Origin: Dialister sp.
Lineage (GTDB): Bacteria; Bacillota; Negativicutes; Veillonellales; Dialisteraceae
NCBI GenBank assembly: GCA_003447275.1
Contig: DLZS01000082.1
Coordinates: forward strand, 1-49,026
Direction: 5' to 3'
DNA: 49,026 nucleotides
Shown: piece after piece, positions 8,060-45,639 of the stretch
Layout: every line of letters starts with the position of its first letter
How positions within the stretch are numbered: position 1 is the stretch's first letter
Notes under the pieces: generated by a model
Told to the model about the DNA's origin: nothing
The model's database searches: none
What the model saw: the letters and a program-made list of their open reading frames with translations, nothing else
Made by a program: the position numbers and the translations under genes

Positions 8060-11000
8060 TCATTGTTTCCCTGTTTCCCTTTTCAGCTCATCCATAAAGT
8101 CAGCCATCCAGTCTGTCATTGTCCCTTTGATAAGTGCCTTATGGATACGGAGCTTGGCTGGAGATCCCGGAAGGAATTTCAGATATGGGAGCCATGTCTT
8201 TGGAAGCTTCATCGGATCCCACCCATGCATGAAGCTTTCATCAGCCCAGGTGACAAGGAGGCTGTCCCCCTCGTCGATGATGCTTCCAATCCCCAGATGA
8301 CGTGCTTTCACACGGATCTCCGAGATACGGAAGAGCTTCTCCGCCGGCTGGCTTGGCGTACCGAAGCGATCGATCACCTCATCGATGAGATCGGTGAGTG
8401 TTTTCTCATCTTCGATCGCCGCAAGGCGTCGATAGATCTCCATCTTCTGTTCCTGATTTGCGATATATCCGCTGTCAAGATACGCATCCTGACGGAACTC
8501 GATCGTGGTATTCGGCAGCTTCTTCGGTACAGGCCGGTTCTCACGGACGGCGCGCAGTCGCTCCACCGCTTCCTCAAGCATGGAGCAGTATGCCGCAAAG
8601 CCGATGCTGGCGATATTACCATGCTGCTCTCTCCCGAGAAGATTTCCGGCACCGCGGATCTCCAGATCCCGCATGGCGACTTTGAAGCCGCTTCCGAGCT
8701 CGGTGAATTCACGGATCGTATCCAGTCGTTTTTCTGCCACCTCGGAAAGCACCTTCCCCCGCCGGTAGAAGAACCACGCCCGTGCGATCTTTTCTGAACG
8801 ACCGACGCGCCCTCGCATCTGATAGATCTGTGAAAGCCCCAAGCGGTCAGCATCATAGACAAGCATGGTATTCGCATTCGGCTGGTCCAGACCATTCTCG
8901 ATGAGCGTCGTGCAGAGAAGGACATCATACTTTCCCTGATAGAAATCGAGCATGACTTTTTCGAGCTGCCGCCCTTCCATGCGCCCATAGGCGATGCCGA
9001 TGGTCACATCTTCGGGAAGAATGCTTCGCAAATGGTCAGCCATCGCACCGATCGTTTCGATGCGATTGTAGACGAAGAACGTCTGCCCGCCTCGCTCTTT
9101 CTCACGGAGAATCGCATCTTTGACGATATGGTCGTCGTACTCCGTCACATACGTCTGGATCGCATGGCGATTCGATGGCGGCGTCGTGATCGTCACCATA
9201 TCGCGGACGCCGGTGAGACTCATGTGAAGGGTACGAGGGATCGGTGTCGCAGACAGTGTCAGCACATCGATGCCGGATGCCAGAGATTTCCACTTCTCCT
9301 TCTGCACGACACCGAAGCGCTGCTCTTCATCGACGACGAGAAGCCCTAGCTTCTTCGGATGCACCTTCTTATTGAGCACCGCATGGGTACCGATGACCAC
9401 ATCCAGCGTGCCGCTTTCCATCTCCTGATAGATGCGGTTCTTTTCCTTGGCTGTCGTGAAACGGTTCAGTACTGCCAGACGGACACCGAAGCTTTCCATC
9501 CGTTCCTTGAAATTCTTATAATGCTGCTCCGCGAGGACCGTCGTCGGACAAAGGACGAAAGCCTGATAGCCGGACATGATGCATTTGAAGACAGCTCGCA
9601 TCGCGACTTCCGTCTTGCCAAAGCCCACATCTCCGCATAGGAGCATATCCATCGGCATCGGTTTCTCCATGGCTTTTTTGATGGCGTCGATCGCCAGCAG
9701 CTGATCTGTCGTTTCCACATAGGGGAATGTGTCTTCGAATTCACGCTGTTCGGCCGTATCCGGAGCAAAAGCAATGCCCTGCGTGATCTCACGCTTCGCA
9801 TAGACGGCAAGCAGCTTCTCTGCCAGTTCCTCGATGGACTTTTTGGCCTTCGCCCGCGCCTTCGTCCACGCGCTGCTCCCCATGTCATGGAGCTTCGGCG
9901 TTTCCCCTTCCGGGCCGATATATTTTTCCAACGACGAGATCTTTTCGACAGGAAGATAGAGCTTGTCATTGCCCGCATACTGGATCGTGATATAGTCCCT
10001 GTGAATACCGGAAAGCTCGATGGTACGGATCCCGAGGTACTTACCGATGCCATGCGTGGCCTGTACGACATAGTCGCCGGGATTCAGATCTGAGAAATAG
10101 CGGATCTGCTTCCCCTTTGGACCGGAACGCACGCGGCGCACCTTCTGCTTCCCCAGTACATCTCCCGCTGTAATGACAGCCAGTGTATCATCGGTAAGCT
10201 CAAAGCCCTCCGACAGAAGGCCATGGATCAGCGTGACCTTCCCCGCCTCCAGTGTGCGGCTCTCTGGGATATGGAAATCCGAAAAAAGCGCGGAAAGCTC
10301 CCTTTCCTCCGAGGGCCGGGGAGCGAGAGAGAGGACTTTCCATCCTTTTGCGAGCAGATTTTTGAGATCCTCCATGAAGATCGGGATCTGCCGCTGGTAG
10401 TTCGTCATGGTGTGACCTTGCCACGCCACATCCCGCTCCGTATCAAAGCCTGTCAGCTTTCGCTTGAGCAGAGTGCATACGATTTCCTTATTCTTCGCCT
10501 TGCGCGCCTGTCCGATGACCTCTTTCCAGGATAGCGCCGCCTTTTTATGCGCGGCATCCTCCTTGAAGTATCGTTTCAGCGATTCTTCGCACCGCTGCGG
10601 TTCATCATAAAAGACAAGCGCCTTCGAAAGGTATGAGAAGACAAGCGCCTCTCCCACGCCCTTACCGTGAAGTGGCAGGAAAACCTGCGACTTTCTGTCT
10701 TCGATCGAGCGCTGCGTATCTTCGTCAAAAAGCCGCACGCTGTCGACCTCGTCATCGAAAAGCTCGATGCGGACGGGATGCTCTTCATTGATAGGGAAAA
10801 TGTCGATGATATCACCGCGCACCGCAAAATGACCGCAGCGCTCGACCTGATCCACCCGTTCATAGCCGGCAGACGTCAGTTTCTCCTGCAAAGCGTCCCA
10901 TCCGATTTCCTCTCCGCTAGAAACCTGAAATGCACTCTCCTCCAGCTGCGATGGGCTGACCACCTTCTGCGCCGCTTCCACGGCTGTAGCTAGGATAATG

Positions 11001-21153: not shown

Positions 21154-22267
21154 TTACTTTGCTTTGATGTTGAACTTGTTCTGTTTCAGGAAGCCTTCAA
21201 TGAAAGGATTCAGATCCCCATCCATGACGCCCTGGATATTGCCCGTTTCAATGCCCGTCCGGTTATCCTTGACAAGGGTATACGGCTGGAATACATAGGA
21301 ACGGATCTGGCTGCCCCATTCGATCGCCTGCTGCTCTCCTTCGATGTCTTTGGTCATCTGTTCGCGTTTCTTGAGTTCGAGTTCATACAGCTTGGCACGG
21401 AGAAGACGAAGACACTGTTCCTTATTCTGGAACTGGGAGCGTTCATTCTGGCAGGCGGCGACGATCCCCGTAGGAATATGAGTCATTCGGACAGCCGAGC
21501 TCGTCTTATTGATATGCTGTCCGCCGGCACCGCTGGAACGATAATAATCCACACGGACATCTGCCATGTTCAGATCGACTTCGACATCATCACTGATTTC
21601 CGGCATGACATCCACGGCGGAGAAAGACGTATGACGACGTTTCGCTGCATCAAACGGAGAAATACGGACAAGACGGTGGACCCCTTTTTCGGATTTCAGG
21701 AATCCGTAGGCGTACTTGCCTTTGACCATGTATTCCGCACTCTTGATACCGGCTTCATCGCCCGGAAGCATATTCAGCTCCTCGATAGCAAAGCCTTCCG
21801 CTTCAGCCCATTTGATATACATACGGATCAGCATCTCGGTCCAGTCCTGGGCTTCGGTACCGCCTGCCCCGGCATGGAACGTGATAATGGCATTGTTCGC
21901 ATCATAGGGTTCGCTCAGAAGAAGCTCGATCTCCTTTTTATCAAGGATCTCTTTCAGCTCATCAAGCTCTGCCTTGATTTCCGGCTCCATCCCCTGATCA
22001 TCTTCTTCGATGGCAAGGTCCAGAAGATCCTTCAGGCCTTCCGCTCTGTCAAAGAGGCGGGTGTATGTATCATAGGCATCCTTGGCTTCTGTTGCTGCCT
22101 GTGAGATCTCACGGGCTTTATCTGCATCATCCCAGAATGTCGGATCACTCATCTGAATATCGTAACTTGCGATTCTTTCTTTCAGCTGAGGTAAGTCAAA
22201 GTGAATCCCTTATTTCTTTTTCATGATTCAGCAGGTCTGTCAAGGTTTTTTTCAAATCTTCCAACAT
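21154..22267 (-). CDS. prfB: Peptide chain release factor 2, programmed +1 frameshift at 22201-22195 (about 370 aa)
   Basis: ATG 22267 gives MLEDLKKTLTDLLNHEKEIRDSL then CTT TGA C; the +1 frame reads DLPQLKERIASYDIQMSDP into the ORF carrying SPF and GGQ motifs. Confidence 0.96.
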
Positions 22268-32307: not shown

Positions 32308-32631
32308 TCAGACCATTCGATAGGATAAGCCTCCTGTCTTTTTTGCGTGGGGGAAATACGTCTCGAAAAGCGTGTTTTTGAAAACTTGTCCAGTCCCTTT
32401 TATGATTTCATCCATAAACCCGAACAGAACCGTTTTCAACATATTGACGGGATTATATCTGATTCTACCCAACTCATGAGCAGGGAGTTTGCTCAGATAT
32501 TTGCGTAAATCGATTTCCTCCATACATCTGTCAAACGTGAAAACCGGATCTGTGATATCCAGACACTCAGAAAAAAATGCTGGTGAAATTCCCTGCTTGG
32601 GATTATCATAATACACAGCTAGTTTTTTCAT
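32308..32631 (-). pseudogene. Truncated IS1182-family transposase (DUF772-like N-terminus only)
   Basis: DPVFTFDRCMEEIDLRKYL..GRIRYNPVNMLKTVLFGFM resembles IS1182 N-termini; no DDE domain follows. Confidence 0.7.
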
Positions 32632-32727
32632 TACACTTAAACTCTAACACAAAAAGGACTTTCGATTCGCAAAAATCGAAAGTCCTTTTTTGTGTTCATG
32701 GAGCTATTATTTCACAGCCCCTTTTTT
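32308..32727 (-). mobile_element. Internally deleted IS1182-like element remnant (left end plus transposase N-terminus)
   Basis: End motif GGGGCTGTGAA (32721-32711) resembling GGAGCTGTGAA at 31570; subterminal hairpin 32646-32696; truncated transposase ORF. Confidence 0.6.
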
Positions 32728-32790: not shown

Positions 32791-34704
32791 TTACATACAG
32801 CGCCAAATATGGAGAAGCTGGTCTTCTGTCATCTTATCGACCTGGAAATAGGAGGCCCCCATGGCTTTTGCGATCTTTTTCGCAAGTCCGAGACGGATAA
32901 AGCCAGACTCCGTATCAATGACAGCCACAGGAAGATGGCGGCGTCCTATACGTTTCGCTTCATCCATGGCATCGGTCACGGGATCGGTTCCTTCATTGAG
33001 CGGACTGGTCGCACGGCCATCCGTGATGAGAATGACAACGGGATCCTGCGCCGGATCCTGCCTGTAAAGCATATCGAGTACATCTTCCGCTTTGAGAAGA
33101 CCTTTCGCCAGCGGCGTCTTGCCGCCGGTCGGCATAGAGGCCAGTTTCTTCTGCGCGAAATCTACGCTTCTTGTGACAGGGAGAAGGACCTCCGCCTGCT
33201 TCTTACGGAAAGCGATCATACCGACGCGATCACGTTTCTGATACGCATCAAGGAGGATCTTGAAGATGACGCCTTTGACCGTTTTCATACGTTCCCGAGC
33301 GCCCATGGATCCGGAGGCATCGACGACGAAAAGGAAAATATTCCCCGTGCGTTTTTCACGCACTTTGCTGCGAAGGTCATCTTTTCTGATGACGACAGCG
33401 CATCCATTCGACGGGCGGGCCTTCTGATACGGAGCCGCCGCACGCAGCGTGGCATCGAAAGCGATGTCGCTGGTCTTTGCTTTCGGGATTTCCGCACGTA
33501 CATAGCGTCCCTGCATCAGGTCAGTCATGGTCAGGCTGCGCTTGCCGCTCCCTTTCTTCGGCTTTCTGTCCTTGGCAGGCTCGATCCACATCGGAGGCAG
33601 ATTGACATGGAGATTGGCCGCATCGACACGTTCACGGGAAGCCCCCTTCGGATTCGACATCTGGGCATTGGTATCATTTTGATTCTCATTGCCTTGACTG
33701 TCTTCCGTATCCGTCTGCTCGGGCTGCGGCTGCTCCGGTCTTGTAAAATCCTGATCACTCTGAGAAGGATCCTGCGGCTGATCCTTCGAAGGTGCCTCGC
33801 TATCCGGCGGCTGCGGCGGTGGATTCTCTGTATCCTCATGCCTATCTTCCTCTTCTTCCGCTTTTCTCATGCGGTGAGGCAGGATGAATTCTGCCGCCTT
33901 TTCAAGGTCTTTCGGAAGGACATATTTTCTTCCCGCCAATGCCGCTTCGGCTCTGGCGGCTTCGATGAGATAAATGTCCGCACGATGTCCCGCCACATGT
34001 GCCTTCAGTGTATAGACGGCGGCCAGCTGGATCATGGCCGGTGACACCTCGACATCTTTCAGTCTTTCTCTGGCCTTGGCGACCTGATCCCTCAGCGCTT
34101 CTGTCTCTTTCTCCCATTTCTTGCGGAAGGCAAGTCCGTCTTTTTCGAAATCCAGTACACGTCGAATGATTTCGATCCTGGTCTTATCATCTGCCTGAGG
34201 CTCTATCTGGGCAAAAAGGCCGAAACGGTCGAGCGAAGAAGAAGAAAGCGTACCGCTTTCCGGATTCATGACAGAAAGTACCGTGAAACGAGACTCTCTC
34301 TGCTCCGAGAGACCGTCACGCTCGAGGCGGTAGCCGCCTGCCTCGCGAATATTCAGAATGGCAGAAAGCAGATCGTCGCGCAGCAGATTCGCATCATCGA
34401 TATAGAGCAGTCCGTCATTCGCTTCATCGATAAGACCCGGCAGGAGCTTTTTGTGCCCGCTTCGAATGGCCTCTTCGGCATCGATAGCTCCGAAGAGACG
34501 GTCCTCTGTGATGCTGATCGGCACCTCTACCCACGGGGCGTCCAGAAGCTCTCTGGCGCTTCGGACGAGCGTAGATTTCCCTGTTCCCTTTTCACCAGAC
34601 AGGAGAAGTCCTCCGGCGTGCGGGTTGACCAGGGTGAGGAGGATCGCTTCCTTCGCCTTTTCTGCGCCGCAGATGGCAGCGAAAGGAAATCCGTTACGCT
34701 TCAT
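32791..34704 (-). CDS. Chelatase medium subunit, ChlD/BchD-like (AAA+, acidic/Pro linker, vWA)
   Basis: [36 protein letters not shown] linker, MIDAS DASGSM, GGKTPL, ITDGR. Confidence 0.9.
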
Positions 34705-35722
34705 CGTCGATGACCTTATCCACTTCGGACCAGTCCAGAGTCTGTTCTTCGAAAGGACGGCGTCTCATACGGTGCGGGAGCGCCAGACGGGAAGCCTCAC
34801 GGATATCTTCCTTCGTGACCTCAGTATGACCTTCTACGGCTGCGATGGTTTCTGCCGTCTTAATCAGCGTGATGTCTGCACGGTGACCATCGACGCCGAG
34901 CGTGATGGAGATCTTGGCAGCCAGCAGGAGAATGTCATTCGACACCGTGACCTGCGGGAGCAGCTTCATCGCACGCTCGATGCGGCGGACTTCTTTCTCC
35001 TGCTCATCCTTCCACGCTTCGAGGAAAGGCTGCGGATCTGCTTCATAAGCCAGACGGCGTTTGATGATTTCTGCTCTCTTTTCCGGATCCTGTTCACCGA
35101 CGACCTTGACAGAAAGGGCGAAACGGTCAAGAAGCTGCGGACGGATGTCCCCTTCTTCCGGATTCATCGTGCCGACCAGAGAGAAGCGCGCCGGATGGGA
35201 GTAGGAAATCCCTTCACGCTCTACAGTATTGATCCCCATAGCGGCCGAGTCAAGAAGTACATCGACGACATGGTCATCCAGCAGATTGATCTCATCGACA
35301 TAGAGAATGTTGCGGTTCGCATCTGCGAGAATACCTGTTTCGAAGGAACGCTTGCCTTCACGGATAGCCGCCTCGATATCCAGTGTGCCGACGACACGGT
35401 CTTCTGTCGCACTGACCGGAAGCTCGACCACCTTCATCGGCAGCATCTCTACGTCCGGTTCTGCATGGTCGTATTTTTCATGGCATTCATCACACCAGTT
35501 GGCTTTGTCATCCGGATCGTCATGGAAACGGCATCCCTTGATGCAGCGGCGCGGCGGAAGCAGGTCAGCAAGAGCACGCACTGCTGTCGACTTTGCCGTC
35601 CCTTTCTCGCCCTGAATGAGTACGCCGCCCAGCTTTGGATTGACGACATTCAGCACGAGTGCTCTTTTCATCGTATCCTGGCCGATAATAGCTGTAAATG
35701 GAAATGTTCCCTGTCTTTTCAT
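34694..35722 (-). CDS. Chelatase small AAA+ subunit, ChlI/BchI-like
   Basis: [68 protein letters not shown]. Confidence 0.93.
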
Positions 35723-35796
35723 GAATATCCTCCTTAAAATAAATGGATCTTATCGATAGAAAAAAGGTGCAGGAGAAACACAGGTTCTTTGCGGAA

Positions 35797-36849
35797 TCAG
35801 CATTTCCTCATATATCTTTTTATAAAAAACTGTTTCATCGCACATTCTGCTTCAGACTTTTTCACCGCTCCGTCCGAGCGAAGCCAGCGGGAGAAGCACC
35901 CTCCGCCGCATAGAGGGAAATAGGAGCAGTCGCGGCACTCCGCCATGGCCTTGTCGACAAAAGCAGCAACGGCTCTCACTTTTTCAGGATCACGCCCTTC
36001 GTGGACATTCCCCAGAAGATAGCGATCTCTTCCCATCAGCGAGGAGCAGGCATAGATATTCCCATGCACATCGACAAAAGCCGCTTCCCCGTGCATGGCA
36101 TAGCATTGCGGGAAATCGTAATCCTTGGTTTTTGCAAGACGAGCGGCTCGATCCTCCTGCGTGAAATGGATATGCCGTCCCGTCATCTGTTCCAAAAGGT
36201 CCATGCGCGCCGCCGTCTTTTCGAGCGCTTTTGTCATCGCCTCTGCGGAAGGCGCATGAAGAGCAGCCCCGCGCCCCTGCTCACGCAAGATATCAAAGCC
36301 GACCTGGTGAACATTTCCATAGAAATGCGCCATGTCTGCAATACCCGGAAGATCCTCTGTCATATCCTCTGTCACGACGCAGGTGATGCCCGTCCCGATG
36401 CCGGCAGACGCCAGATTCTTAAAGCCTTCTGACGCAGCCTGAAAGGACGAGCCGCCATCTTTTTTCCGGCGCGTGCGGTCCATGAGATCCTTGCGTCCGT
36501 CACAGGAAATACCGATCCCCACACCATGCCGGTAGAGCCATGTACCTATATCCTTGGTGAGGAGTGAGCCATTCGTCTGTATCTGCATCTGTGCATCATA
36601 ATGATTCCTCTCGGCGATTTCTACCAGTTTCCGTATGAGCGGAAATCGAAGCAGCGGCTCCCCGCCGGAAAACTGCAGGAGAAAGCGATTTCCTCCCCTT
36701 CCGGCAAGGTGCAATGCCGCAATGGCCGTCTCCTCCTTCATATCCACCTGATCAGCATCTGCTGCATAACAATACCGACAGGCAAAGTTGCAGCGGCCGG
36801 TCAGCGTGAGGACCAGCATACGGATCGGCGCAAGGTCAGTCGTCATCAT
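35797..36849 (-). CDS. Radical SAM protein with SPASM domain
   Basis: CNFACRYC, FSGGEPLL, QTNG, ISCDG; C-terminal C..GNIYAC..LGNV..CRDC-x5-C-GGG-C..C; overlaps the cobN stop. Confidence 0.9.
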   Translation of the reverse strand: MMTTDLAPIRMLVLTLTGRCNFACRYCYAADADQVDMKEETAIAALHLAGRGGNRFLLQFSGGEPLLRFPLIRKLVEIAERNHYDAQMQIQTNGSLLTKDIGTWLYRHGVGIGISCDGRKDLMDRTRRKKDGGSSFQAASEGFKNLASAGIGTGITCVVTEDMTEDLPGIADMAHFYGNVHQVGFDILREQGRGAALHAPSAEAMTKALEKTAARMDLLEQMTGRHIHFTQEDRAARLAKTKDYDFPQCYAMHGEAAFVDVHGNIYACSSLMGRDRYLLGNVHEGRDPEKVRAVAAFVDKAMAECRDCSYFPLCGGGCFSRWLRSDGAVKKSEAECAMKQFFIKRYMRKC

Positions 36850-39800
36850 CTTCGAGTTCCCCTTCGACAGAGAGGTAAAGCTCCTGCAGCTCCTCTTTCA
36901 TCTCATCGCTTGCGTGCCACATGTCACGCTGGTTTGCTTCAAGAAGCGTCTCTGCCATGCTCTGGAGCGCCCATGGATTGACCTTCTTCATCCATTTCTG
37001 CATCGCCGGATCTAAAGCATATTTCTGCGCATACTGTTCATACATCCAGTCATCCATGACACCGCTTGTCGCATCCCACTGAAAGGAAATCGAGAGACGG
37101 TTTGCGAGATCGGTCGCCCCTTTGTAGCCGTGTTTCATGAGCCCTTCGATGTACTTTGGATTCATAGATTCTGCACGGAAAACACGCTTCATTTCTTCCT
37201 GTACCGTCTTTACACCGACAGAAGACCGATTCGTACTGTCACCCACATAGGAAACAGGCGCTTTCCCGCCGAGGCTCTTGACCGCCGCGATCATCCCGCC
37301 ATGGAATGCATTGTAATCATCGGATGAAAGGATATTGCTCTCATGGTTTTCCTCATTCTTGACCGTGAGGTCGAGAGAAGCGAGACGCTTCTGGAACAGC
37401 TCCGGATGGAAGACGCCGCGTTTGCCGCCGCCGAAGACATGCCCGCCCCAGCGGACATACACATTCGCCAGATCCTCTTCCGTCTGCCAGTTCTTCGCAT
37501 CAAGCACCGTATTGACACCTGCACCGTAGGTTCCGGGCGCGTCGCCAAAGATGCGGAAAGCGGCATTTCTCCATGCCTCATCTCCATCGACACCGGCATC
37601 CTCCATGGATCTGGCATCTTCTTTCACATGCTTACGGATGAAATTATCCTCTTCAGATTCATCCAGCGCGGCCACAAGAAGTACCGCCTGATCCATCAGT
37701 TCAGCGAGCTGCGGAAGGGTATCGCGGAAAAGACCGGAGATACGTCCCGTCACGTCGATGCGCGGCCGTTTGAGTTCCGTAAGGGGTATCGCCTCGAGCC
37801 CTGTCACGCGCAGACTTCCCTTCTGCCAGACAGGACGGACCCCCAAGAGGTAAAGGAATTCGGCGATGTCCTGCCCCGAGGAGCGCATATTCGGCCCCGA
37901 CCACAGTACCATCCCGATATTTTCCGGATACTTGCCCTGGTCAGCGATGAATTTCTCTATCATGCGATCGCCCAGTTTCACACCGAGCTGCCATCCTGCC
38001 GGGGAGGGCATGGTGCGTGGATCCGTGCCATAGAAATTGCGTCCTGACGGAAGGAGCGAAACGCCGCCAGCATTCGGTGAGCCGGAAGGCCCCGGCTCCA
38101 CATAGCGGCCTGCCAGCGCATCCATCGTGTGCGTGAGTTCCTCTTTCACCCCCTGAATACGCGGCACCATCTCCTCGTTCACAAACGTGAGAAGTTTTTT
38201 CAGTGTCTTTCTCCATGCATCACTGCCCTGCGCCTCCGGAAGCGCCATGGCAGAGTCGATCGCTTCTGCCGTAAAGCGGCCGGAAGCCAGCGTCTCGATG
38301 ACCTGCTTCGCTTCTTTTCGGATTTGATCCATCAGCTGTCCGCCAGTGATCCCCTGCGTTTCCACCATGTCTCCCGCATGCTGCTGGATATCATCCAAGG
38401 TAACGCCGTATTTTTCAGCGAACAAATCATAAATGGAAGACACGTCTTCATTCGAAAGACGCAGCATCTGGAGAATGCCATCTACAAGAAGGGTGCCTGT
38501 CAACGGCTGTCCCAGGATATGCAGCCCCACGTGGACTTCGCTGTCTTTCAACTCTTCTATATAGTCATGCAGCGCAGCGACATAGTCTGCAAACGGCTTC
38601 TTTCCCTGATAAGGTACTTCTTCATCCAGCTTGGCTTTCACCGCCAATTTGCGAATCGGCTCCTCCATCGCAGAAACATCGCTCCCGTTTCCCTTGAGAG
38701 CGGCATACTCATCGATCGTTTTCTCCAGCTCGGCGATTTCATCGTAAGCACCTGCATCAGCGACAGGCGCCGGCATGTAACTGACCAGACAGCCAGCAGC
38801 GCGGCGCTTGGCGATCATACCTTCGCCGGTGATCGTCATATGGTATGGATAGATATTCGGGATATCCCCGAGGGCGATGTCCGGATAGCTTTCTTCATCC
38901 AGTCCGACACCTTTCCCCGGAAGCCATTCCAGATTTCCATGCGTCCCCATATGAATGACCGCATCCGCTTTCCACACATGACGCAGCCAGTAGTAGAAAG
39001 CAAGATACTGATGTGTCGGCGGGATCTTCGGATCATGATACGCCTTCGAAGGATCCATCCCGTACTGGCGCGATGGCTGCACCGTGAGGAAAAGATGTCC
39101 GTCCATCGTACCGGGAACGAGAATATCGCCTTTTTCTGAAATCATGACATCGCCCGGTGCCTCTCCCCAGGTATCCACCATGGATGCCTTCGCTTCTTTC
39201 CCGAGCTGTCGGAAGAAATCCAAGTACTCACGGCAGGAAAGCTTCTGGCAGGACTCCGCCTGCTCTTCCGTCATCATGGAAATATCATTCGTCGCATGGG
39301 ATGTCATGAGCCGGATGAAATCATCCGATGTTTCCGGGATGAAATCCATCTGATAGCCCGCTTTCTTCATTTCCTTCATGAGACGGATGGTACTCTCCAT
39401 CGTATCCAGACCGGAAGCACTCCCGATATTCGAATTCTTCGCCGGATAATTGTGGAAAATGATAGCGATCTTTTTATTTTCATTCTTCATCTGATGAAGG
39501 CTCGCCCATTTCCCTGCCTTTTTGACCATCTGCGTCACGCGCTCAGGAATCGGCACATAGGAGACACTGCCATCGACATCTTTTTTGCGACCTGCGATCG
39601 GCAGACCGGAAATCGCGCCGTCCAGCTCAGGAAGCGCGACCGCGATCGACGTTTCCACCGCATTCATCCCCTCTGGATTCTTGCGCCAGTCAGCCTCCGA
39701 TGTGAGAAGCGTATAGGCAGAGAGGATAGGCACCCCCAGCTTCTTCAAGACGGGAAGGCTCGTCTTTCCTGCGCCAAGCATAGAAAACTTCATCGTGGAC

Positions 39801-40549
39801 ACCAGCGCATCGATGACAGGCTGTCCGTCCTTCATGAAATACGTCTCCAGTACCTCCGATAACGACGGCATGCCTGCCGACTCATCGATGAACCCGTTTG
39901 CAAAGACAGGAAGCACCGCATAGCCTTCTTTGTCCGCTTCCTCCAGAAAAGCCTTCACATACGCGGTATCATCCCAGATCCACTCATCGCGGTAGAAAAG
40001 CAGCCCCAGTACAGGTCGATCTCCATAGGGATGCGCCGCCTCGTAATCCGAGAGCGTCTTCTGCAAGCGGCTCTCCACGCTCGGATCATAGATTCCCGCC
40101 CAGCTGTACTTCTCCGGCGGTTGTGCTTTTTCCGCCTTGTCGTCAAAGAGTCCGTTCGCATACAGCCAAAGATTTTTGAAATTGCTGAGGCCTCCATACA
40201 GACAGTACTTGCGGAATGTCTCGAGCACCTCGCCATCGATCGACGCACTGTGCTCTGCCATATCCCCATCAATGGCATCGACAAAGTATGCGATGTGATT
40301 CTGATCCAGAAAATTTTTACAGTCTTTCCAAAAGGAAGACTTCAGTGCATTCTTCATCAAGTGGATCATGACCAGAGAAGCACCGGATACTTTGCGCTCC
40401 CAATTTCTGCTCCAGTCACTCGTGCGTTCCACGCGCACAGAAATAGACAGGTCAGAAATCAGCCTCTTCTCCTGAAGCGCCTCACAGGCTTTCTTCATGG
40501 AGGCATACCGCCTGTCATGGTTCGTCATATATAGAATTTTGGGTTCCAT
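36836..40549 (-). CDS. cobN: Cobaltochelatase large subunit, CobN/ChlH family
   Basis: 1237 aa; ALPELDG, HMGTHGNLEWLPGK, GPSGSP..LPSGRNFY, RPRIDVTGRISGLFRD, NPKYIEGLMKHGYKG. Confidence 0.92.
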   Translation of the reverse strand: MEPKILYMTNHDRRYASMKKACEALQEKRLISDLSISVRVERTSDWSRNWERKVSGASLVMIHLMKNALKSSFWKDCKNFLDQNHIAYFVDAIDGDMAEHSASIDGEVLETFRKYCLYGGLSNFKNLWLYANGLFDDKAEKAQPPEKYSWAGIYDPSVESRLQKTLSDYEAAHPYGDRPVLGLLFYRDEWIWDDTAYVKAFLEEADKEGYAVLPVFANGFIDESAGMPSLSEVLETYFMKDGQPVIDALVSTMKFSMLGAGKTSLPVLKKLGVPILSAYTLLTSEADWRKNPEGMNAVETSIAVALPELDGAISGLPIAGRKKDVDGSVSYVPIPERVTQMVKKAGKWASLHQMKNENKKIAIIFHNYPAKNSNIGSASGLDTMESTIRLMKEMKKAGYQMDFIPETSDDFIRLMTSHATNDISMMTEEQAESCQKLSCREYLDFFRQLGKEAKASMVDTWGEAPGDVMISEKGDILVPGTMDGHLFLTVQPSRQYGMDPSKAYHDPKIPPTHQYLAFYYWLRHVWKADAVIHMGTHGNLEWLPGKGVGLDEESYPDIALGDIPNIYPYHMTITGEGMIAKRRAAGCLVSYMPAPVADAGAYDEIAELEKTIDEYAALKGNGSDVSAMEEPIRKLAVKAKLDEEVPYQGKKPFADYVAALHDYIEELKDSEVHVGLHILGQPLTGTLLVDGILQMLRLSNEDVSSIYDLFAEKYGVTLDDIQQHAGDMVETQGITGGQLMDQIRKEAKQVIETLASGRFTAEAIDSAMALPEAQGSDAWRKTLKKLLTFVNEEMVPRIQGVKEELTHTMDALAGRYVEPGPSGSPNAGGVSLLPSGRNFYGTDPRTMPSPAGWQLGVKLGDRMIEKFIADQGKYPENIGMVLWSGPNMRSSGQDIAEFLYLLGVRPVWQKGSLRVTGLEAIPLTELKRPRIDVTGRISGLFRDTLPQLAELMDQAVLLVAALDESEEDNFIRKHVKEDARSMEDAGVDGDEAWRNAAFRIFGDAPGTYGAGVNTVLDAKNWQTEEDLANVYVRWGGHVFGGGKRGVFHPELFQKRLASLDLTVKNEENHESNILSSDDYNAFHGGMIAAVKSLGGKAPVSYVGDSTNRSSVGVKTVQEEMKRVFRAESMNPKYIEGLMKHGYKGATDLANRLSISFQWDATSGVMDDWMYEQYAQKYALDPAMQKWMKKVNPWALQSMAETLLEANQRDMWHASDEMKEELQELYLSVEGELEDDDD

Positions 40550-40723
40550 AGCTCGCCTTTCTCTCGGTTCGTCCTAAAAATACGTACGGATACTTTTTGC
40601 TTCCCTAAGAAATCAAAATGATTCTCTTCATAGAAGACTATGGTTTACTCATTCATTATACTACAAACCCGCATCTTTTAAAGCAATTTGGCGACAATTC
40701 TAATTAAAACGTTAACTTGTGCA

Positions 40724-40763
40724 AATAAAAGCAGGACAACCATCAGAAAATGATTGTCCTGCC
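40724..40763 (-). terminator. Terminator after the binding-protein gene
   Basis: Minus strand GCAGGACAAUCAU/AUGGUUGUCCUGC followed by UUUUAUUU. Confidence 0.75.
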
Positions 40764-40854
40764 TCGTTATACTGTCATAATAAAATTATTAAGGAAACAC
40801 TGATTAAAGTATTTGTTCACTGGATGTCACTGCCTCAGCGAACAGCTGGCGTCA

Positions 40855-41883
40855 TCAGCCCTTAAAATTCTTTGCATCCATGACCGTGATTCCGGTATTT
40901 ACATCTCTTTCAGAAACGGCCTTTCCATTGGCAAGATCGGCCGCCGCCTTCACCGCTTCGTACCCCATCTTCTCCGGATTCTGTGCGATGGTCGCGAAAT
41001 GGTAGCTGCCATCTTTTAGAGCTGCCACAGCCGGTTCTGAAAGGTCGAAGCCCATGACAGAGAGATCCTTGCGTCCTTCCTTCATGACCGTAGCAATCGT
41101 GGCTTTCGTGGAGCTGTTGTTGCAGGCGATGATGCCCTTCACGCTCTGATCCTGAAGCGTCTTTTCCACCAGTTCACCCGCCGTCTGCTCATCGCCATAA
41201 TTGATCAGATATGCTTTGGAAATTTTCCAGTTTTTCGGTGCTACGTTGTACCAGTTGGCAATGGTGGAATCCAGACGTTCCGAGATCGTGCGGCTTGCGA
41301 GGTTGCTGACATGCATGACGACCTTGATTTCCTCCTCTTCCGATACCCCGCTTTCCTTCAGAAGCTCCACCATCTTCTTTGCCACTTCCGCACCAGCTGC
41401 CAGATTATTCGTCATGTAGGACGCATCATAGTCTTCCGTATTCATCATCGTATCGACCAGAACGACCGGCAGCTTATCGCCTCGAAGATTCTTCGCAGTC
41501 TCGGTCAGACGCATGCTGTCAGCCGCGCCGAGAATAATGGAATCCGCCTTTTTCGCCTGCGCATCAAGCAGCATGGCGCGCTGCAGCTCCCAGTTGCCAT
41601 CCTTATTCACGCCGCCTACATAGACATTGATCCCATTCTCTTCCCCTGCTTTTTTCATGCCGGCAATCACTTTTTTCCAATAGCTGCCATTTATGGCTTT
41701 CACGACAGCATAGACATTCTTCTGTCCGCTTTTCACGGAGGTGACTGCTTTGAAATCCTGCTTCGCCGGTGCCTCAGCGACCTTCTGCGTCACCGTTCCC
41801 TGCGGCTCGGCCTGAGTCCCACACCCAGCGACCCCACCTGCCAGAATACATGCAGAAATAAGAAGTGCCCACATTTTTTTCAT
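40855..41883 (-). CDS. Sugar ABC-type substrate-binding lipoprotein (RbsB/LacI-like fold), orphan
   Basis: Lipobox VAGC, YWKKVIAG, PVVLVD, TNNLAAG, VMGFD, IAQNPEKMGY; RBS AAGGAG. Confidence 0.85.
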   Translation of the reverse strand: MKKMWALLISACILAGGVAGCGTQAEPQGTVTQKVAEAPAKQDFKAVTSVKSGQKNVYAVVKAINGSYWKKVIAGMKKAGEENGINVYVGGVNKDGNWELQRAMLLDAQAKKADSIILGAADSMRLTETAKNLRGDKLPVVLVDTMMNTEDYDASYMTNNLAAGAEVAKKMVELLKESGVSEEEEIKVVMHVSNLASRTISERLDSTIANWYNVAPKNWKISKAYLINYGDEQTAGELVEKTLQDQSVKGIIACNNSSTKATIATVMKEGRKDLSVMGFDLSEPAVAALKDGSYHFATIAQNPEKMGYEAVKAAADLANGKAVSERDVNTGITVMDAKNFKG

Positions 41884-44047: not shown

Positions 44048-44902
44048 TTAGATTTTTTCTACCTGCATACCACGATTGGTGAGGCTCACAAGATCGAGGA
44101 AGGTGATGCCTTCGACAGTGTCCTCCAGCTTTTCCCGAAGAGGCAAGGCCTCCATGCCCGGCGGCAGAATAAGTCCTAGGACAGTCCCGCTGTGCGCACA
44201 GATGACCCCTTTCCCGCCAAGAGAAAGGCCGATCCGATGAAAATCGGCAAGCTGCTTTTTATACAGGATCTTCTGGTTGCAGAATGCAGAGATAGAGGCA
44301 GCCTCGCCTATGAGGTCAATGGATTTTTCAGCGATGCCTTTCTCGAAGAGACGAAGAGCATGTGCGATATCCTTTTCATTGCTTTTCTGCAGAGCGATAA
44401 GATCTTCCCGCGAATTGAAAGACATCGTGTCGATCTCTCCCCCGCAGTCATAGATAAGAATATCCATCGCCGGTGAGAGCCCGAGAGAACGAATCGCTTT
44501 CCCTTCCCTGTAGTCAAATTGCACGATCCCCTCGAAGAAGGTCGCATCGCTTGGCTCTATAGAGAGCGCAATGTGAGCGATCTCCTCCATCGACAGCTTC
44601 CGCCCAAAGGAAAGTGCAACGGCCTCTGCAACGGCACTGATATCCGCCGTACTCGAAGCAAGTCCCTTTCCTTTCGGTATCGATGAGATAAGGCGCACGG
44701 ACGGCCGATCCGTCTCGCCAAGGTAAGCCAGCGTCTTTCTCAGCGCTTCCTCTGCTTTATCGGGAAGTGCATCCTCTGCCTTTTCATCGACCAGAGCCAT
44801 CGCATAGCGGTTGATGGGGCAGGTCACCATGAAGGAAGCCCCCTCAGCATAGCCCTGTATGAATTCGCCGCAGGAACCTGGCGAGCTAACTACATATGCC
44901 AT
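44048..44902 (-). CDS. pduX: L-threonine kinase (PduX/BluE-type GHMP kinase)
   Basis: PGSCGEFIQG, VTCPI, IPKGKGLASSTAD, IEPSD, AHSGTVLG; start moved to MAYVVSS, overlapping the cobS end. Confidence 0.85.
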   Translation of the reverse strand: MAYVVSSPGSCGEFIQGYAEGASFMVTCPINRYAMALVDEKAEDALPDKAEEALRKTLAYLGETDRPSVRLISSIPKGKGLASSTADISAVAEAVALSFGRKLSMEEIAHIALSIEPSDATFFEGIVQFDYREGKAIRSLGLSPAMDILIYDCGGEIDTMSFNSREDLIALQKSNEKDIAHALRLFEKGIAEKSIDLIGEAASISAFCNQKILYKKQLADFHRIGLSLGGKGVICAHSGTVLGLILPPGMEALPLREKLEDTVEGITFLDLVSLTNRGMQVEKI

Positions 44903-45639
44903 ACCTGCCCCCTTGTAAGAATGACGAAAAGCAGAGCCAGAAAGGCTTCTGTGAGCTCGGTGACAAATCCATATGTATCGCCTGTCGTGCCACCGATCTT
45001 CTTGACGATCCAGCGGTTCAGCTGCAGCCCGAGTACGATGGCAGCCCCCGCCAGCAGAAGGTAGGTCCATCCGAAGTAGAGGGCAGGCAGCAATGCCAGC
45101 ACAAAGGCTTTCTCCAGTGCATACTTCTCACGATAAGCGGCAAACGCTTTCCCCATGCCGTATGGCCGGGCATAGGGGTACTCGCAGATAGAGATCACCA
45201 TATTGAGCCGCCCCAGCGTCGGCATCGCCATAAGAACCAGATAGAGCGGCGCATCCGCCGAGCCAAGCGAGAGCGTTTCCACCAGCACAAAGATCAAAAT
45301 GGACAGCATACCGAAAGAACCGATAAGGCTATCCTTCATGATCTCCAGACAGCGCTCCTTTGAGCGGCCAGAAAACAGGCCGTCCGAAGAATCCATCAGC
45401 CCATCAGCGAGTGTCCCCCCGGTGAGGAAAAGCTCTCCCACCACCAGAAGGAATCCCGTCAAAAGCGGAACCCCCAGCGGCTTCATCAAGAAATAGATAA
45501 GGCACATAAAAGCGCCGATGATCCATCCTATCACAGGAAACCAAGTGACGCTTTTCCCGAATTCCTCATCATTCCATACGGTGCGGTCGGAAATATGGAT
45601 ACGGGTCAGAAACTGCAGACCCACTAAAAATGCATTCAT
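44890..45639 (-). CDS. cobS: Adenosylcobinamide-GDP ribazoletransferase
   Basis: LQFLTRI, DGLMDSSDG, IMKDSLIGSFG, GGTTGDTYG. Confidence 0.94.
   Translation of the reverse strand: MNAFLVGLQFLTRIHISDRTVWNDEEFGKSVTWFPVIGWIIGAFMCLIYFLMKPLGVPLLTGFLLVVGELFLTGGTLADGLMDSSDGLFSGRSKERCLEIMKDSLIGSFGMLSILIFVLVETLSLGSADAPLYLVLMAMPTLGRLNMVISICEYPYARPYGMGKAFAAYREKYALEKAFVLALLPALYFGWTYLLLAGAAIVLGLQLNRWIVKKIGGTTGDTYGFVTELTEAFLALLFVILTRGQVWHM

Follow-up and report, generated by a model that had tools for sequence, protein, structure and literature searches.

The class I chelatases CobNST and BchHID are textbook three-subunit machines, and none of the characterised members of this class is known to include a radical enzyme. 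Here, a four-gene unit from Dialister sp. (Negativicutes) is described, in which the genes for a CobN-type large subunit and for ChlI- and ChlD-type subunits are joined by a gene for a radical S-adenosylmethionine (rSAM) enzyme, predicted to belong to the SPASM subgroup. The unit resides in a stretch of 49,026 nucleotides (nt), referred to as the window, which comprises the entire contig C6 of genome G000. It represents a real, conserved and essentially uncharacterised class I chelatase variant that is tied to the cobalamin regulon. With about even confidence, it is read here as a class I cobaltochelatase that serves the salvage or remodelling of corrinoids together with a dedicated rSAM/SPASM partner, operating in the cobalamin regulon of strict anaerobes.

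The CobN-type large subunit, the ATP-dependent three-subunit layout and the B12 gene context are features that the unit has in common with CobNST. In contrast to the latter, the partners encoded next to CobN are of the ChlI/ChlD and not of the CobS/CobT type (a genome-wide search for CobS/CobT was not made), the host is a strict anaerobe with ring genes of the CbiD/CbiG type, and the rSAM/SPASM gene is translationally coupled to cobN. Furthermore, a CobW-type gene was not noticed in the window, for which a genome-wide search was not made either. The ChlI/ChlD-type AAA+ and VWA subunits are shared with BchHID/ChlHID, and a nitrogenase-like reductase encoded nearby in many relatives forms a second parallel, as DPOR and COR follow the Mg-chelatase in bacteriochlorophyll synthesis. 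Nevertheless, the large subunit scores below the cut-off for BchH and above that for CobN, the context is that of cobalamin rather than chlorophyll, and the NifD/K-like proteins of the relatives remain at 36-73 bits with the BchN/B models, the cut-offs of which are about 420-490.

A third point of reference is provided by the HmuS/BtuS proteins of Bacteroidota, where in gut anaerobes a CobN homologue likewise has TonB-dependent uptake genes as neighbours, as is the case in relatives of the host and at the second CobN of G000. According to PMC12583661, HmuS is a CobN homologue of about 1469 amino acids (aa) that de-chelates heme; it is membrane-anchored, carries a Met-rich insertion, depends on NADH and acts independently of ATP. 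In the same source and in PMC6460266, the HmuS/BtuS type appears as membrane-anchored or exported. The CobN of the window, on the contrary, comprises 1237 aa, is predicted to be soluble and is encoded together with ATPase subunits.

By annotation, the unit also resembles operon-2 of Dehalobacter restrictus (Dehre_0281-0292), although orthology of the rSAM protein therein to that of the window was not checked by sequence. As stated in PMC4285132, this operon is situated behind a cobalamin riboswitch and encodes fepB/C-type transport components, two CbiZ proteins, CobN, two ChlI/D-type proteins and an rSAM protein of 347 aa with an extra 4Fe4S-binding domain; its gene order, cobN-chlD-chlI-rSAM, differs from that of the window. 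All operon-2 products were induced by corrinoid starvation, with CobN, the two ChlI/D-type proteins and the rSAM protein rising 31-, 46-, 28- and 17-fold, respectively (Rupakula et al. 2015, PMC4285132). In the main text of that article, the rSAM gene is unmentioned and the word 'radical' occurs 0 times. Likewise, a full-text literature search, with subscription journals outside its coverage, returned no paper on a CobN-associated rSAM enzyme.

A CobN-type chelatase with a conserved radical SAM partner

The large subunit matches PF02514 with 1259 bits over model positions 2-1089 of 1090 and exceeds the cut-off of the CobN equivalog model TIGR02257 (924.3 bits, cut-off 822.05), while it remains below that of the BchH model TIGR02025 (810.2 bits, cut-off 829) and attains 642-724 bits with other BchH models, the cut-offs of which range from 1166 to 1300. 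Among solved structures, the CobN entries 7c6o and 9uk9 (708.3 and 609 bits) rank before ChlH (4zhj, 523.5 bits) and HmuS (9d26), to which the match amounts to 391.6 bits in two stretches. A signal peptide or a membrane or hydrophobic segment was detected in none of the four proteins CobN, rSAM, ChlI and ChlD, the highest 19-residue Kyte-Doolittle mean of CobN being 1.27; hence, the membrane-anchored HmuS/BtuS type does not apply. Judged from its sequence, the large subunit is a soluble, cytoplasmic protein of the CobN type and not HmuS/BtuS-like, which speaks against the connection to heme via HmuS/BtuS that the initial annotation had raised. In both ATPase subunits, the Walker A motif is intact and the AAA/VWA layout is present. 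They match TIGR02442, 'putative cobaltochelatase', best, with 505.6 bits for ChlI and 627.6 bits for ChlD, followed by BchI (428.4 bits) and BchD (446.9 bits), all of these scores lying below the respective cut-offs.

The rSAM protein matches PF04055 with 55.1 bits (cut-off 29.5). Across 19 sequences, the CX3CX2C motif (C20/C24/C27) and a seven-Cys SPASM motif (C249-X13-G-X4-C268, C305-X2-C308-X5-C314-X3-C318 and C336) are invariant, and so is C157. Since the seven cysteines show the SPASM spacing and the predicted fold resembles that of SPASM enzymes, the protein can be placed in this subgroup; the Pfam SPASM model PF13186 gave no score at E<=0.001. The AlphaFold model (predicted local distance difference test, pLDDT, 90.9) superimposes on CteB with template modelling (TM) scores of 0.81-0.82 and on anSME with 0.79-0.80, and both Cys motifs are shared with CteB, anSME, PapB and QhpD. 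Unlike these SPASM enzymes and unlike AhbC/AhbD/NirJ, however, the protein falls below every curated family cut-off. Its best NCBIfam matches are the nif11-type model (138.3 bits, cut-off 518.7) and PapB (134.2 bits, cut-off 340), whereas the AhbC, NirJ and NirJ1/2 models yield 67.9-70.7 bits against cut-offs of 500-650. The latter scores argue against membership in these families only and not against a tetrapyrrole substrate. In total, 455 relatives of the protein are detectable; the family carries no informative name, and a search of the protein atlas gave unnamed rSAM/SPASM clusters only.

Because the best-scoring families are maturases of ribosomally synthesised and post-translationally modified peptides (RiPPs), the enzyme might in principle mature a small peptide, its place beside cobN being incidental. 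Such a role is nearly excluded: apart from the distance of 138 and 134 bits to cut-offs of 340-519 bits, the protein is devoid of an N-terminal RiPP recognition element (RRE) domain, given that family matches begin at model position 72 and chain position 92. Moreover, the rSAM-chlI gaps of nine relatives contain variable, repeat-like spacers and neither a conserved small open reading frame (ORF) nor a precursor peptide, the gap in the window measures 74 nt, and the pairing with CobN is kept across identities of 33-98%.

Two further points concern the rSAM protein. Its use as a substitute precorrin-2 dehydrogenase was considered and dropped, since 4/4 relatives, with or without the rSAM gene, contain a SirC/CysG-N-like gene, as does G000. 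Another rSAM/SPASM gene of G000 (contig C65, L083:15851-17284 (+)) matches the SCIFF maturase model with 610 bits (cut-off 425); it is 25% identical to the cobN-linked gene and unrelated to it.

Conservation of the pairing was assessed in the 80 best genome loci that encode a relative of the rSAM protein. Of these loci, 57 encode CobN at a distance of at most 100 bp from the rSAM gene and 72 at one of at most 8 kb, ChlI and ChlD occur in 53 and 51, and at least one chelatase subunit is found in 77; the three misses (L020, L043 and L058) are truncated by the end of a contig on one or both sides. The usual order is cobN-rSAM-chlI-chlD, with rSAM-chlI-chlD-cobN in Selenomonas. An even sample of 151 Negativicutes genomes contains 43 with the rSAM gene and 57 with CobN, and both are present in 42 of the former 43 (the exception being G013), whereas 15 of the 57 CobN-positive genomes are devoid of the rSAM gene. 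At the phylum level, 16 of 401 sampled genomes encode an rSAM relative, and CobN is directly adjacent in 10 of the 11 loci returned from genomes other than G000. Even a distant rSAM subfamily from other Bacillota, with 33-34% identity, is encoded adjacent to CobN. The pair is thus kept across Negativicutes, Peptococcaceae, Desulfitobacteriaceae and other Bacillota. The initial annotation had let its proposal of a distinct system hinge in part on the rSAM gene being conserved next to cobN, and the proposal withstands this comparison. As a side observation, another rSAM subfamily of about 33% identity (Syntrophaceticus schinkii, L068:10308-11399 (+), and L137-L141) shares loci or genomes with the first; elsewhere in Bacillota it is likewise located directly downstream of CobN, at times between two CobN genes.

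The near-obligate co-occurrence with CobN and the translational coupling would also be expected if the rSAM enzyme modified CobN or another subunit post-translationally, the chelatase itself being conventional. anSME and QhpD modify protein substrates, the closest families and folds of the rSAM protein are peptide- or protein-modifying SPASM enzymes, and anSME likewise lacks an RRE domain. On the other hand, none of the cysteines is invariant among 18 CobN sequences, 17 of which are rSAM-linked, rendering a Cys-based thioether or cross-link on CobN unlikely. CobN positions that separate rSAM-linked from unlinked proteins were also sought, and those obtained are scattered along the protein and look phylogenetic. 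In a FastTree phylogeny of 101 CobNs, from which five near-identical rows (L003-L007) as well as frames shorter than 1050-1100 aa had been removed, the rSAM-adjacent label is clustered (10 changes versus 33.9 in shuffles), yet a single clade of rSAM-linked CobNs was not seen and paralogues interleave. Together with the CobN-positive genomes that do without the rSAM gene, these findings make a dedicated protein maturase quite unlikely. A predicted complex of the C-terminal half of CobN (residues 600-1237) with the rSAM protein received a score of 0.00; controls were not run, and this result counts neither way.

G000 encodes a second CobN (contig C65, locus L083:2266-9007 (+)) of 1223 aa and 54% identity, which comes after a TonB-dependent receptor and a BtuF-type binding protein. 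Neither ChlI/ChlD genes nor an rSAM gene are found beside it, and the genome possesses one chlI/chlD pair only. In the tree, this second CobN groups with rSAM-adjacent CobNs of other Dialister.

Cobalamin context: salvage, synthesis or metal removal

In the window, the unit is located between cobU-cbiP-cbiB-cobS-(GHMP kinase)-cobD-cobC-(binding protein) and cbiL-cbiA-cobO. Among the same-strand neighbours within 8 kb in the 80 loci are genes for BtuF/FhuD-type binding proteins (55 loci), FecCD permeases (34), TonB-dependent receptors (20), NifD/K-like (33-34) and NifH-like (16) proteins, CbiZ (22) and nitrilase-family hydrolases (21). The order binding protein-(permease)-cobN-rSAM-hydrolase-cbiZ recurs in Sporomusa, Desulfitobacteriaceae and Peptococcaceae. 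In addition, 26 loci of relatives were scanned for the cobalamin riboswitch RF00174, which was found with 83-117 bits upstream of the rSAM operon and on the same strand in eight (L047, L056, L053, L052, L057, L080, L077 and L065) and elsewhere in the locus in five more. The other 13 loci showed none, including all of Dialister and all but two of Phascolarctobacterium; in these two, the riboswitch lies downstream of the operon.

This wider context of uptake, CbiZ, hydrolase and cobalamin riboswitches is more in line with salvage or remodelling than with plain de novo synthesis. Action on imported corrinoids is further favoured by the Dehalobacter auxotroph data and by retention of the module in G095, albeit these are few independent cases. 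G095, a genome of 99% completeness, contains neither CbiD nor CbiC and has three TP_methylase matches as opposed to seven in its congeners, but retains the rSAM gene along with three CobN genes. On the salvage or remodelling reading, the module would help to supply corrinoids when these are scarce. A corrin-type macrocycle without correctly placed cobalt, taken up from outside or available in some other way, would be bound by CobN, and ChlI and ChlD would power insertion of the metal, presumably cobalt. A radical step independent of oxygen would fall to the rSAM enzyme, which would act either on the macrocycle bound to CobN or on its transfer, after which the product would join the ordinary late pathway (CobO, CbiP, CbiB and CobS).

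For Dialister, a plain de novo cobaltochelatase has to be weighed against this reading, in which CobN-ChlI-ChlD replaces a missing cytoplasmic CbiK/CbiX and the rSAM enzyme is accessory to the step. The operon is embedded among cob/cbi genes, and ring genes of the anaerobic, early-cobalt type are present in G000: cbiC, cbiG, cbiD and several methylase genes on contig C103, cobA/hemD on C37 and cbiL in the window. A check of the genome for cbiK/cbiX, as suggested by the initial annotation, yielded one CbiK homologue (270 bits), which carries a Sec-type signal peptide and is encoded on contig C21 beside a periplasmic binding protein of the Peripla_BP_2 type, and no CbiX was found in G000. Since the only CbiK homologue is secreted and CbiX was not detected, CobN-ChlID could be the cytoplasmic cobaltochelatase of this organism. 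The pair of secreted cbiK and binding-protein gene adjoins the cbi operon in the relatives G121 and G021. In G121 (L128, C1:394000-412000), rSAM-chlI-chlD stands beside this pair and the cbi operon, with cobN about 600 kb away, and the matching place in the CobN-less G021 (L129, C14:43000-57000) is taken by two cytoplasmic cbiK genes.

A simple displacement of CbiK by CobN is weakened, however, by a further CbiX/CbiK-like frame about 3 kb from the module in G121 as well as by G002 and G046 (family f2), which possess CbiD and a single CbiK match but no CbiX, CobN or rSAM protein. As the CbiK of G002 carries a signal peptide, another cobalt-insertion route must exist in the class. The SirC/CysG-N-like protein of G000 and the persistence of the module in G095 without ring-synthesis genes also count against de novo insertion. 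Moreover, CbiD/CbiG are markers of the early-cobalt route, in contrast to the late action of characterised CobN. Overall, this alternative appears doubtful, though it deserves to be kept in mind. The preference of the initial annotation for salvage or remodelling over plain de novo synthesis is hence supported in the relatives, by uptake genes, CbiZ, hydrolase, riboswitches and G095, but not for G000, where the module could serve as the cell's own cobaltochelatase.

A class I chelatase might also run in reverse and strip the metal from imported corrinoids or metallo-tetrapyrroles, with the rSAM enzyme and possibly nitrogenase-like proteins supplying redox or ring chemistry. Heme de-chelation by the CobN homologue HmuS, as described in PMC12583661, sets a precedent. 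The module is linked to TonB receptors, binding proteins and permeases as well as to CbiZ and an amide hydrolase, the latter two of which could strip a corrinoid before metal removal, and several CobN paralogues per genome are encoded beside uptake genes. Nonetheless, metal removal of this kind is very unlikely here: the CobN of the window is CobN-like, apparently cytoplasmic and accompanied by ATPase subunits, in contrast to the membrane-anchored, ATP-independent HmuS. Furthermore, the module is induced in a corrinoid auxotroph (Dehalobacter) and kept in a non-producer, organisms in which harvesting of cobalt would be pointless. Finally, control in several relatives is exerted by a B12 riboswitch, although iron-type control was not searched for.

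Several observations also weigh against the salvage or remodelling reading. The nearest relatives of the rSAM protein act on peptides or proteins and not on tetrapyrroles. In G000, with its ring pathway, a secreted CbiK homologue and no CbiX detected, a de novo role explains the module equally well. CbiD is present in 41 of the 43 rSAM-positive genomes, so that the argument from non-producers comes down to one good and one 92%-complete genome. None of the scanned Dialister or Phascolarctobacterium loci features RF00174 upstream of the operon, and a search of positions 25000-49026 of the window with Rfam gave only chance-level matches and no cobalamin riboswitch even at E<=1. Moreover, the binding protein encoded upstream of cobN in the window belongs to the sugar-type Peripla_BP_4 family and not to the BtuF type. 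In the literature covered, metal-free corrinoids are not documented to form a natural pool in habitats of this kind.

Nitrogenase-like genes form a separate set of observations. G000 contains a NifH/D/K-like set on contig C94 (L084:5073-8422 (-)), the NifH-like protein of which reaches 393 bits against the nifH cut-off of 394, while its D/K-like proteins match NifE with 86-127 bits only. On contig C19 (L085:5114-9921 (+)), a TonB receptor and a binding protein precede another NifD/K-like pair, which is shorter. In other Dialister and in Phascolarctobacterium, such genes are situated directly upstream of cobN-rSAM. The covered passages of a 2026 review on nitrogenase-like proteins (PMC13474568) make no mention of a CobN-linked group.

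As a speculative extension, which we consider rather doubtful, CobN, the rSAM enzyme and the nitrogenase-like reductase of Dialister, Phascolarctobacterium and Selenomonas relatives could constitute an anaerobic corrinoid rescue pathway. Imported corrins that are metal-free, mis-metallated or damaged would be held on CobN and repaired by radical and low-potential reductive chemistry, then re-metallated with cobalt at the expense of ATP and returned to the cobamide pool. A bolder form, in which the pathway would accomplish the first enzymatic removal of cobalt from a corrin, is less favoured in view of the non-producer and auxotroph data.

Layout of the locus and neighbouring genes

The coordinates of the unit and of associated features are compiled in Table 1. 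The four minus-strand ORFs form one unit with overlapping reading frames: the start of the rSAM gene overlaps the stop of cobN by 14 nt (36836-36849), and the chlD start overlaps the chlI stop by 11 nt (34694-34704). As the initial annotation had noticed, the four co-oriented genes are flanked by terminator-like hairpins, in agreement with ORF coordinates and folding z-scores. None of 200 shuffles folds as well as the hairpin after chlD, and the one at the upstream edge of the unit consists of a 17-bp stem followed by a U-run; a simple terminator scan listed neither of them. A consensus-matching site upstream of cobN is promoter-like and may represent the promoter of the unit.

Table 1. Features of the cobN-rSAM-chlI-chlD unit in the window and of the secreted cbiK pair elsewhere in G000
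Feature	Position	Strand	Evidence
Promoter-like site TTTAAA-16 nt-TATAAT (putative promoter)	40655..40682	-	10/12 consensus matches; ~105 nt upstream of cobN start
cobN, class I chelatase large subunit, 1237 aa, predicted soluble	36836..40549	-	ORF, PF02514/TIGR02257
Radical SAM enzyme, predicted SPASM subgroup, 350 aa, without RRE domain	35797..36849	-	ORF, PF04055, Cys motifs, predicted fold
chlI-type AAA+ ATPase subunit, 342 aa, Walker A GEKGTAKS	34694..35722	-	ORF, TIGR02442/BchI scores
chlD-type AAA+/VWA subunit, 637 aa	32791..34704	-	AAA_5, AAA_lid_2, VWA_2
Intrinsic-terminator-like hairpin and U-run after chlD	32640..32705	-	-30.9 kcal/mol, z -8.9
Terminator-like hairpin closing the upstream binding-protein gene	40715..40775	-	-27.1 kcal/mol, z -7.2
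Secreted cbiK and Peripla_BP_2 neighbour	G000 C21, L086:9258-10247 and 8204-9133	-	Signal peptide, profile match

In RNA-library contigs from one study, parts of the operon are covered at 95-99% identity, and a single contig of 5037 nt spans chlI, the rSAM gene and most of cobN. Since DNA can occur in such libraries, these contigs are not counted as proof of transcription, and stretches without coverage carry no information. Those of a related strain depart from the window at positions 40665 and 32727, i.e. at the edges of the four-gene unit.

Some neighbouring genes of the window merit a brief description. The Peripla_BP_4 protein (40855-41883 (-)), encoded between cobC and cobN, is a lipoprotein with a lipobox-like N-terminus, and it occurs upstream of cobN in the closest Dialister loci only. 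Just downstream of chlD, an ORF of 107 aa (32308-32631 (-)) weakly matches the N-terminus of an IS1182-family transposase (E 1.7e-4) and is possibly an insertion sequence remnant between the unit and galU/galE plus cbiL-cbiA. As listed, the GHMP-kinase ORF between cobS and cobD shares about 180 nt with the cobS ORF (44048-45070 (-) and 44890-45639 (-)), which is probably a start-codon artefact; its position suggests that the kinase may be a PduX-like threonine kinase. Finally, the prfB ORF (21154-22152 (-)) aligns with the release factor 2 model, of 353 positions, from position 31 onwards only, as the usual programmed +1 frameshift near the prfB start would explain.

Relevance for corrinoid metabolism in anaerobes

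Many carriers of the module belong to gut, oral and rumen genera such as Dialister, Phascolarctobacterium and Selenomonas, and Sporomusa species also possess it. Some genera of this kind depend on B12 for the formation of propionate. Since the CobN-rSAM pair is conserved, controlled by B12 riboswitches in several lineages and induced by corrinoid starvation in one proteome, it implies a missing reaction in the anaerobic corrinoid economy. The rescue pathway, if true, would represent an enzymatic capability that is not known for any corrinoid. In general, the module points to an undescribed step in obtaining or recycling B12-like cofactors, which would provide radical SAM enzymology with a new substrate class and could bear on cobamide cross-feeding in microbiomes.

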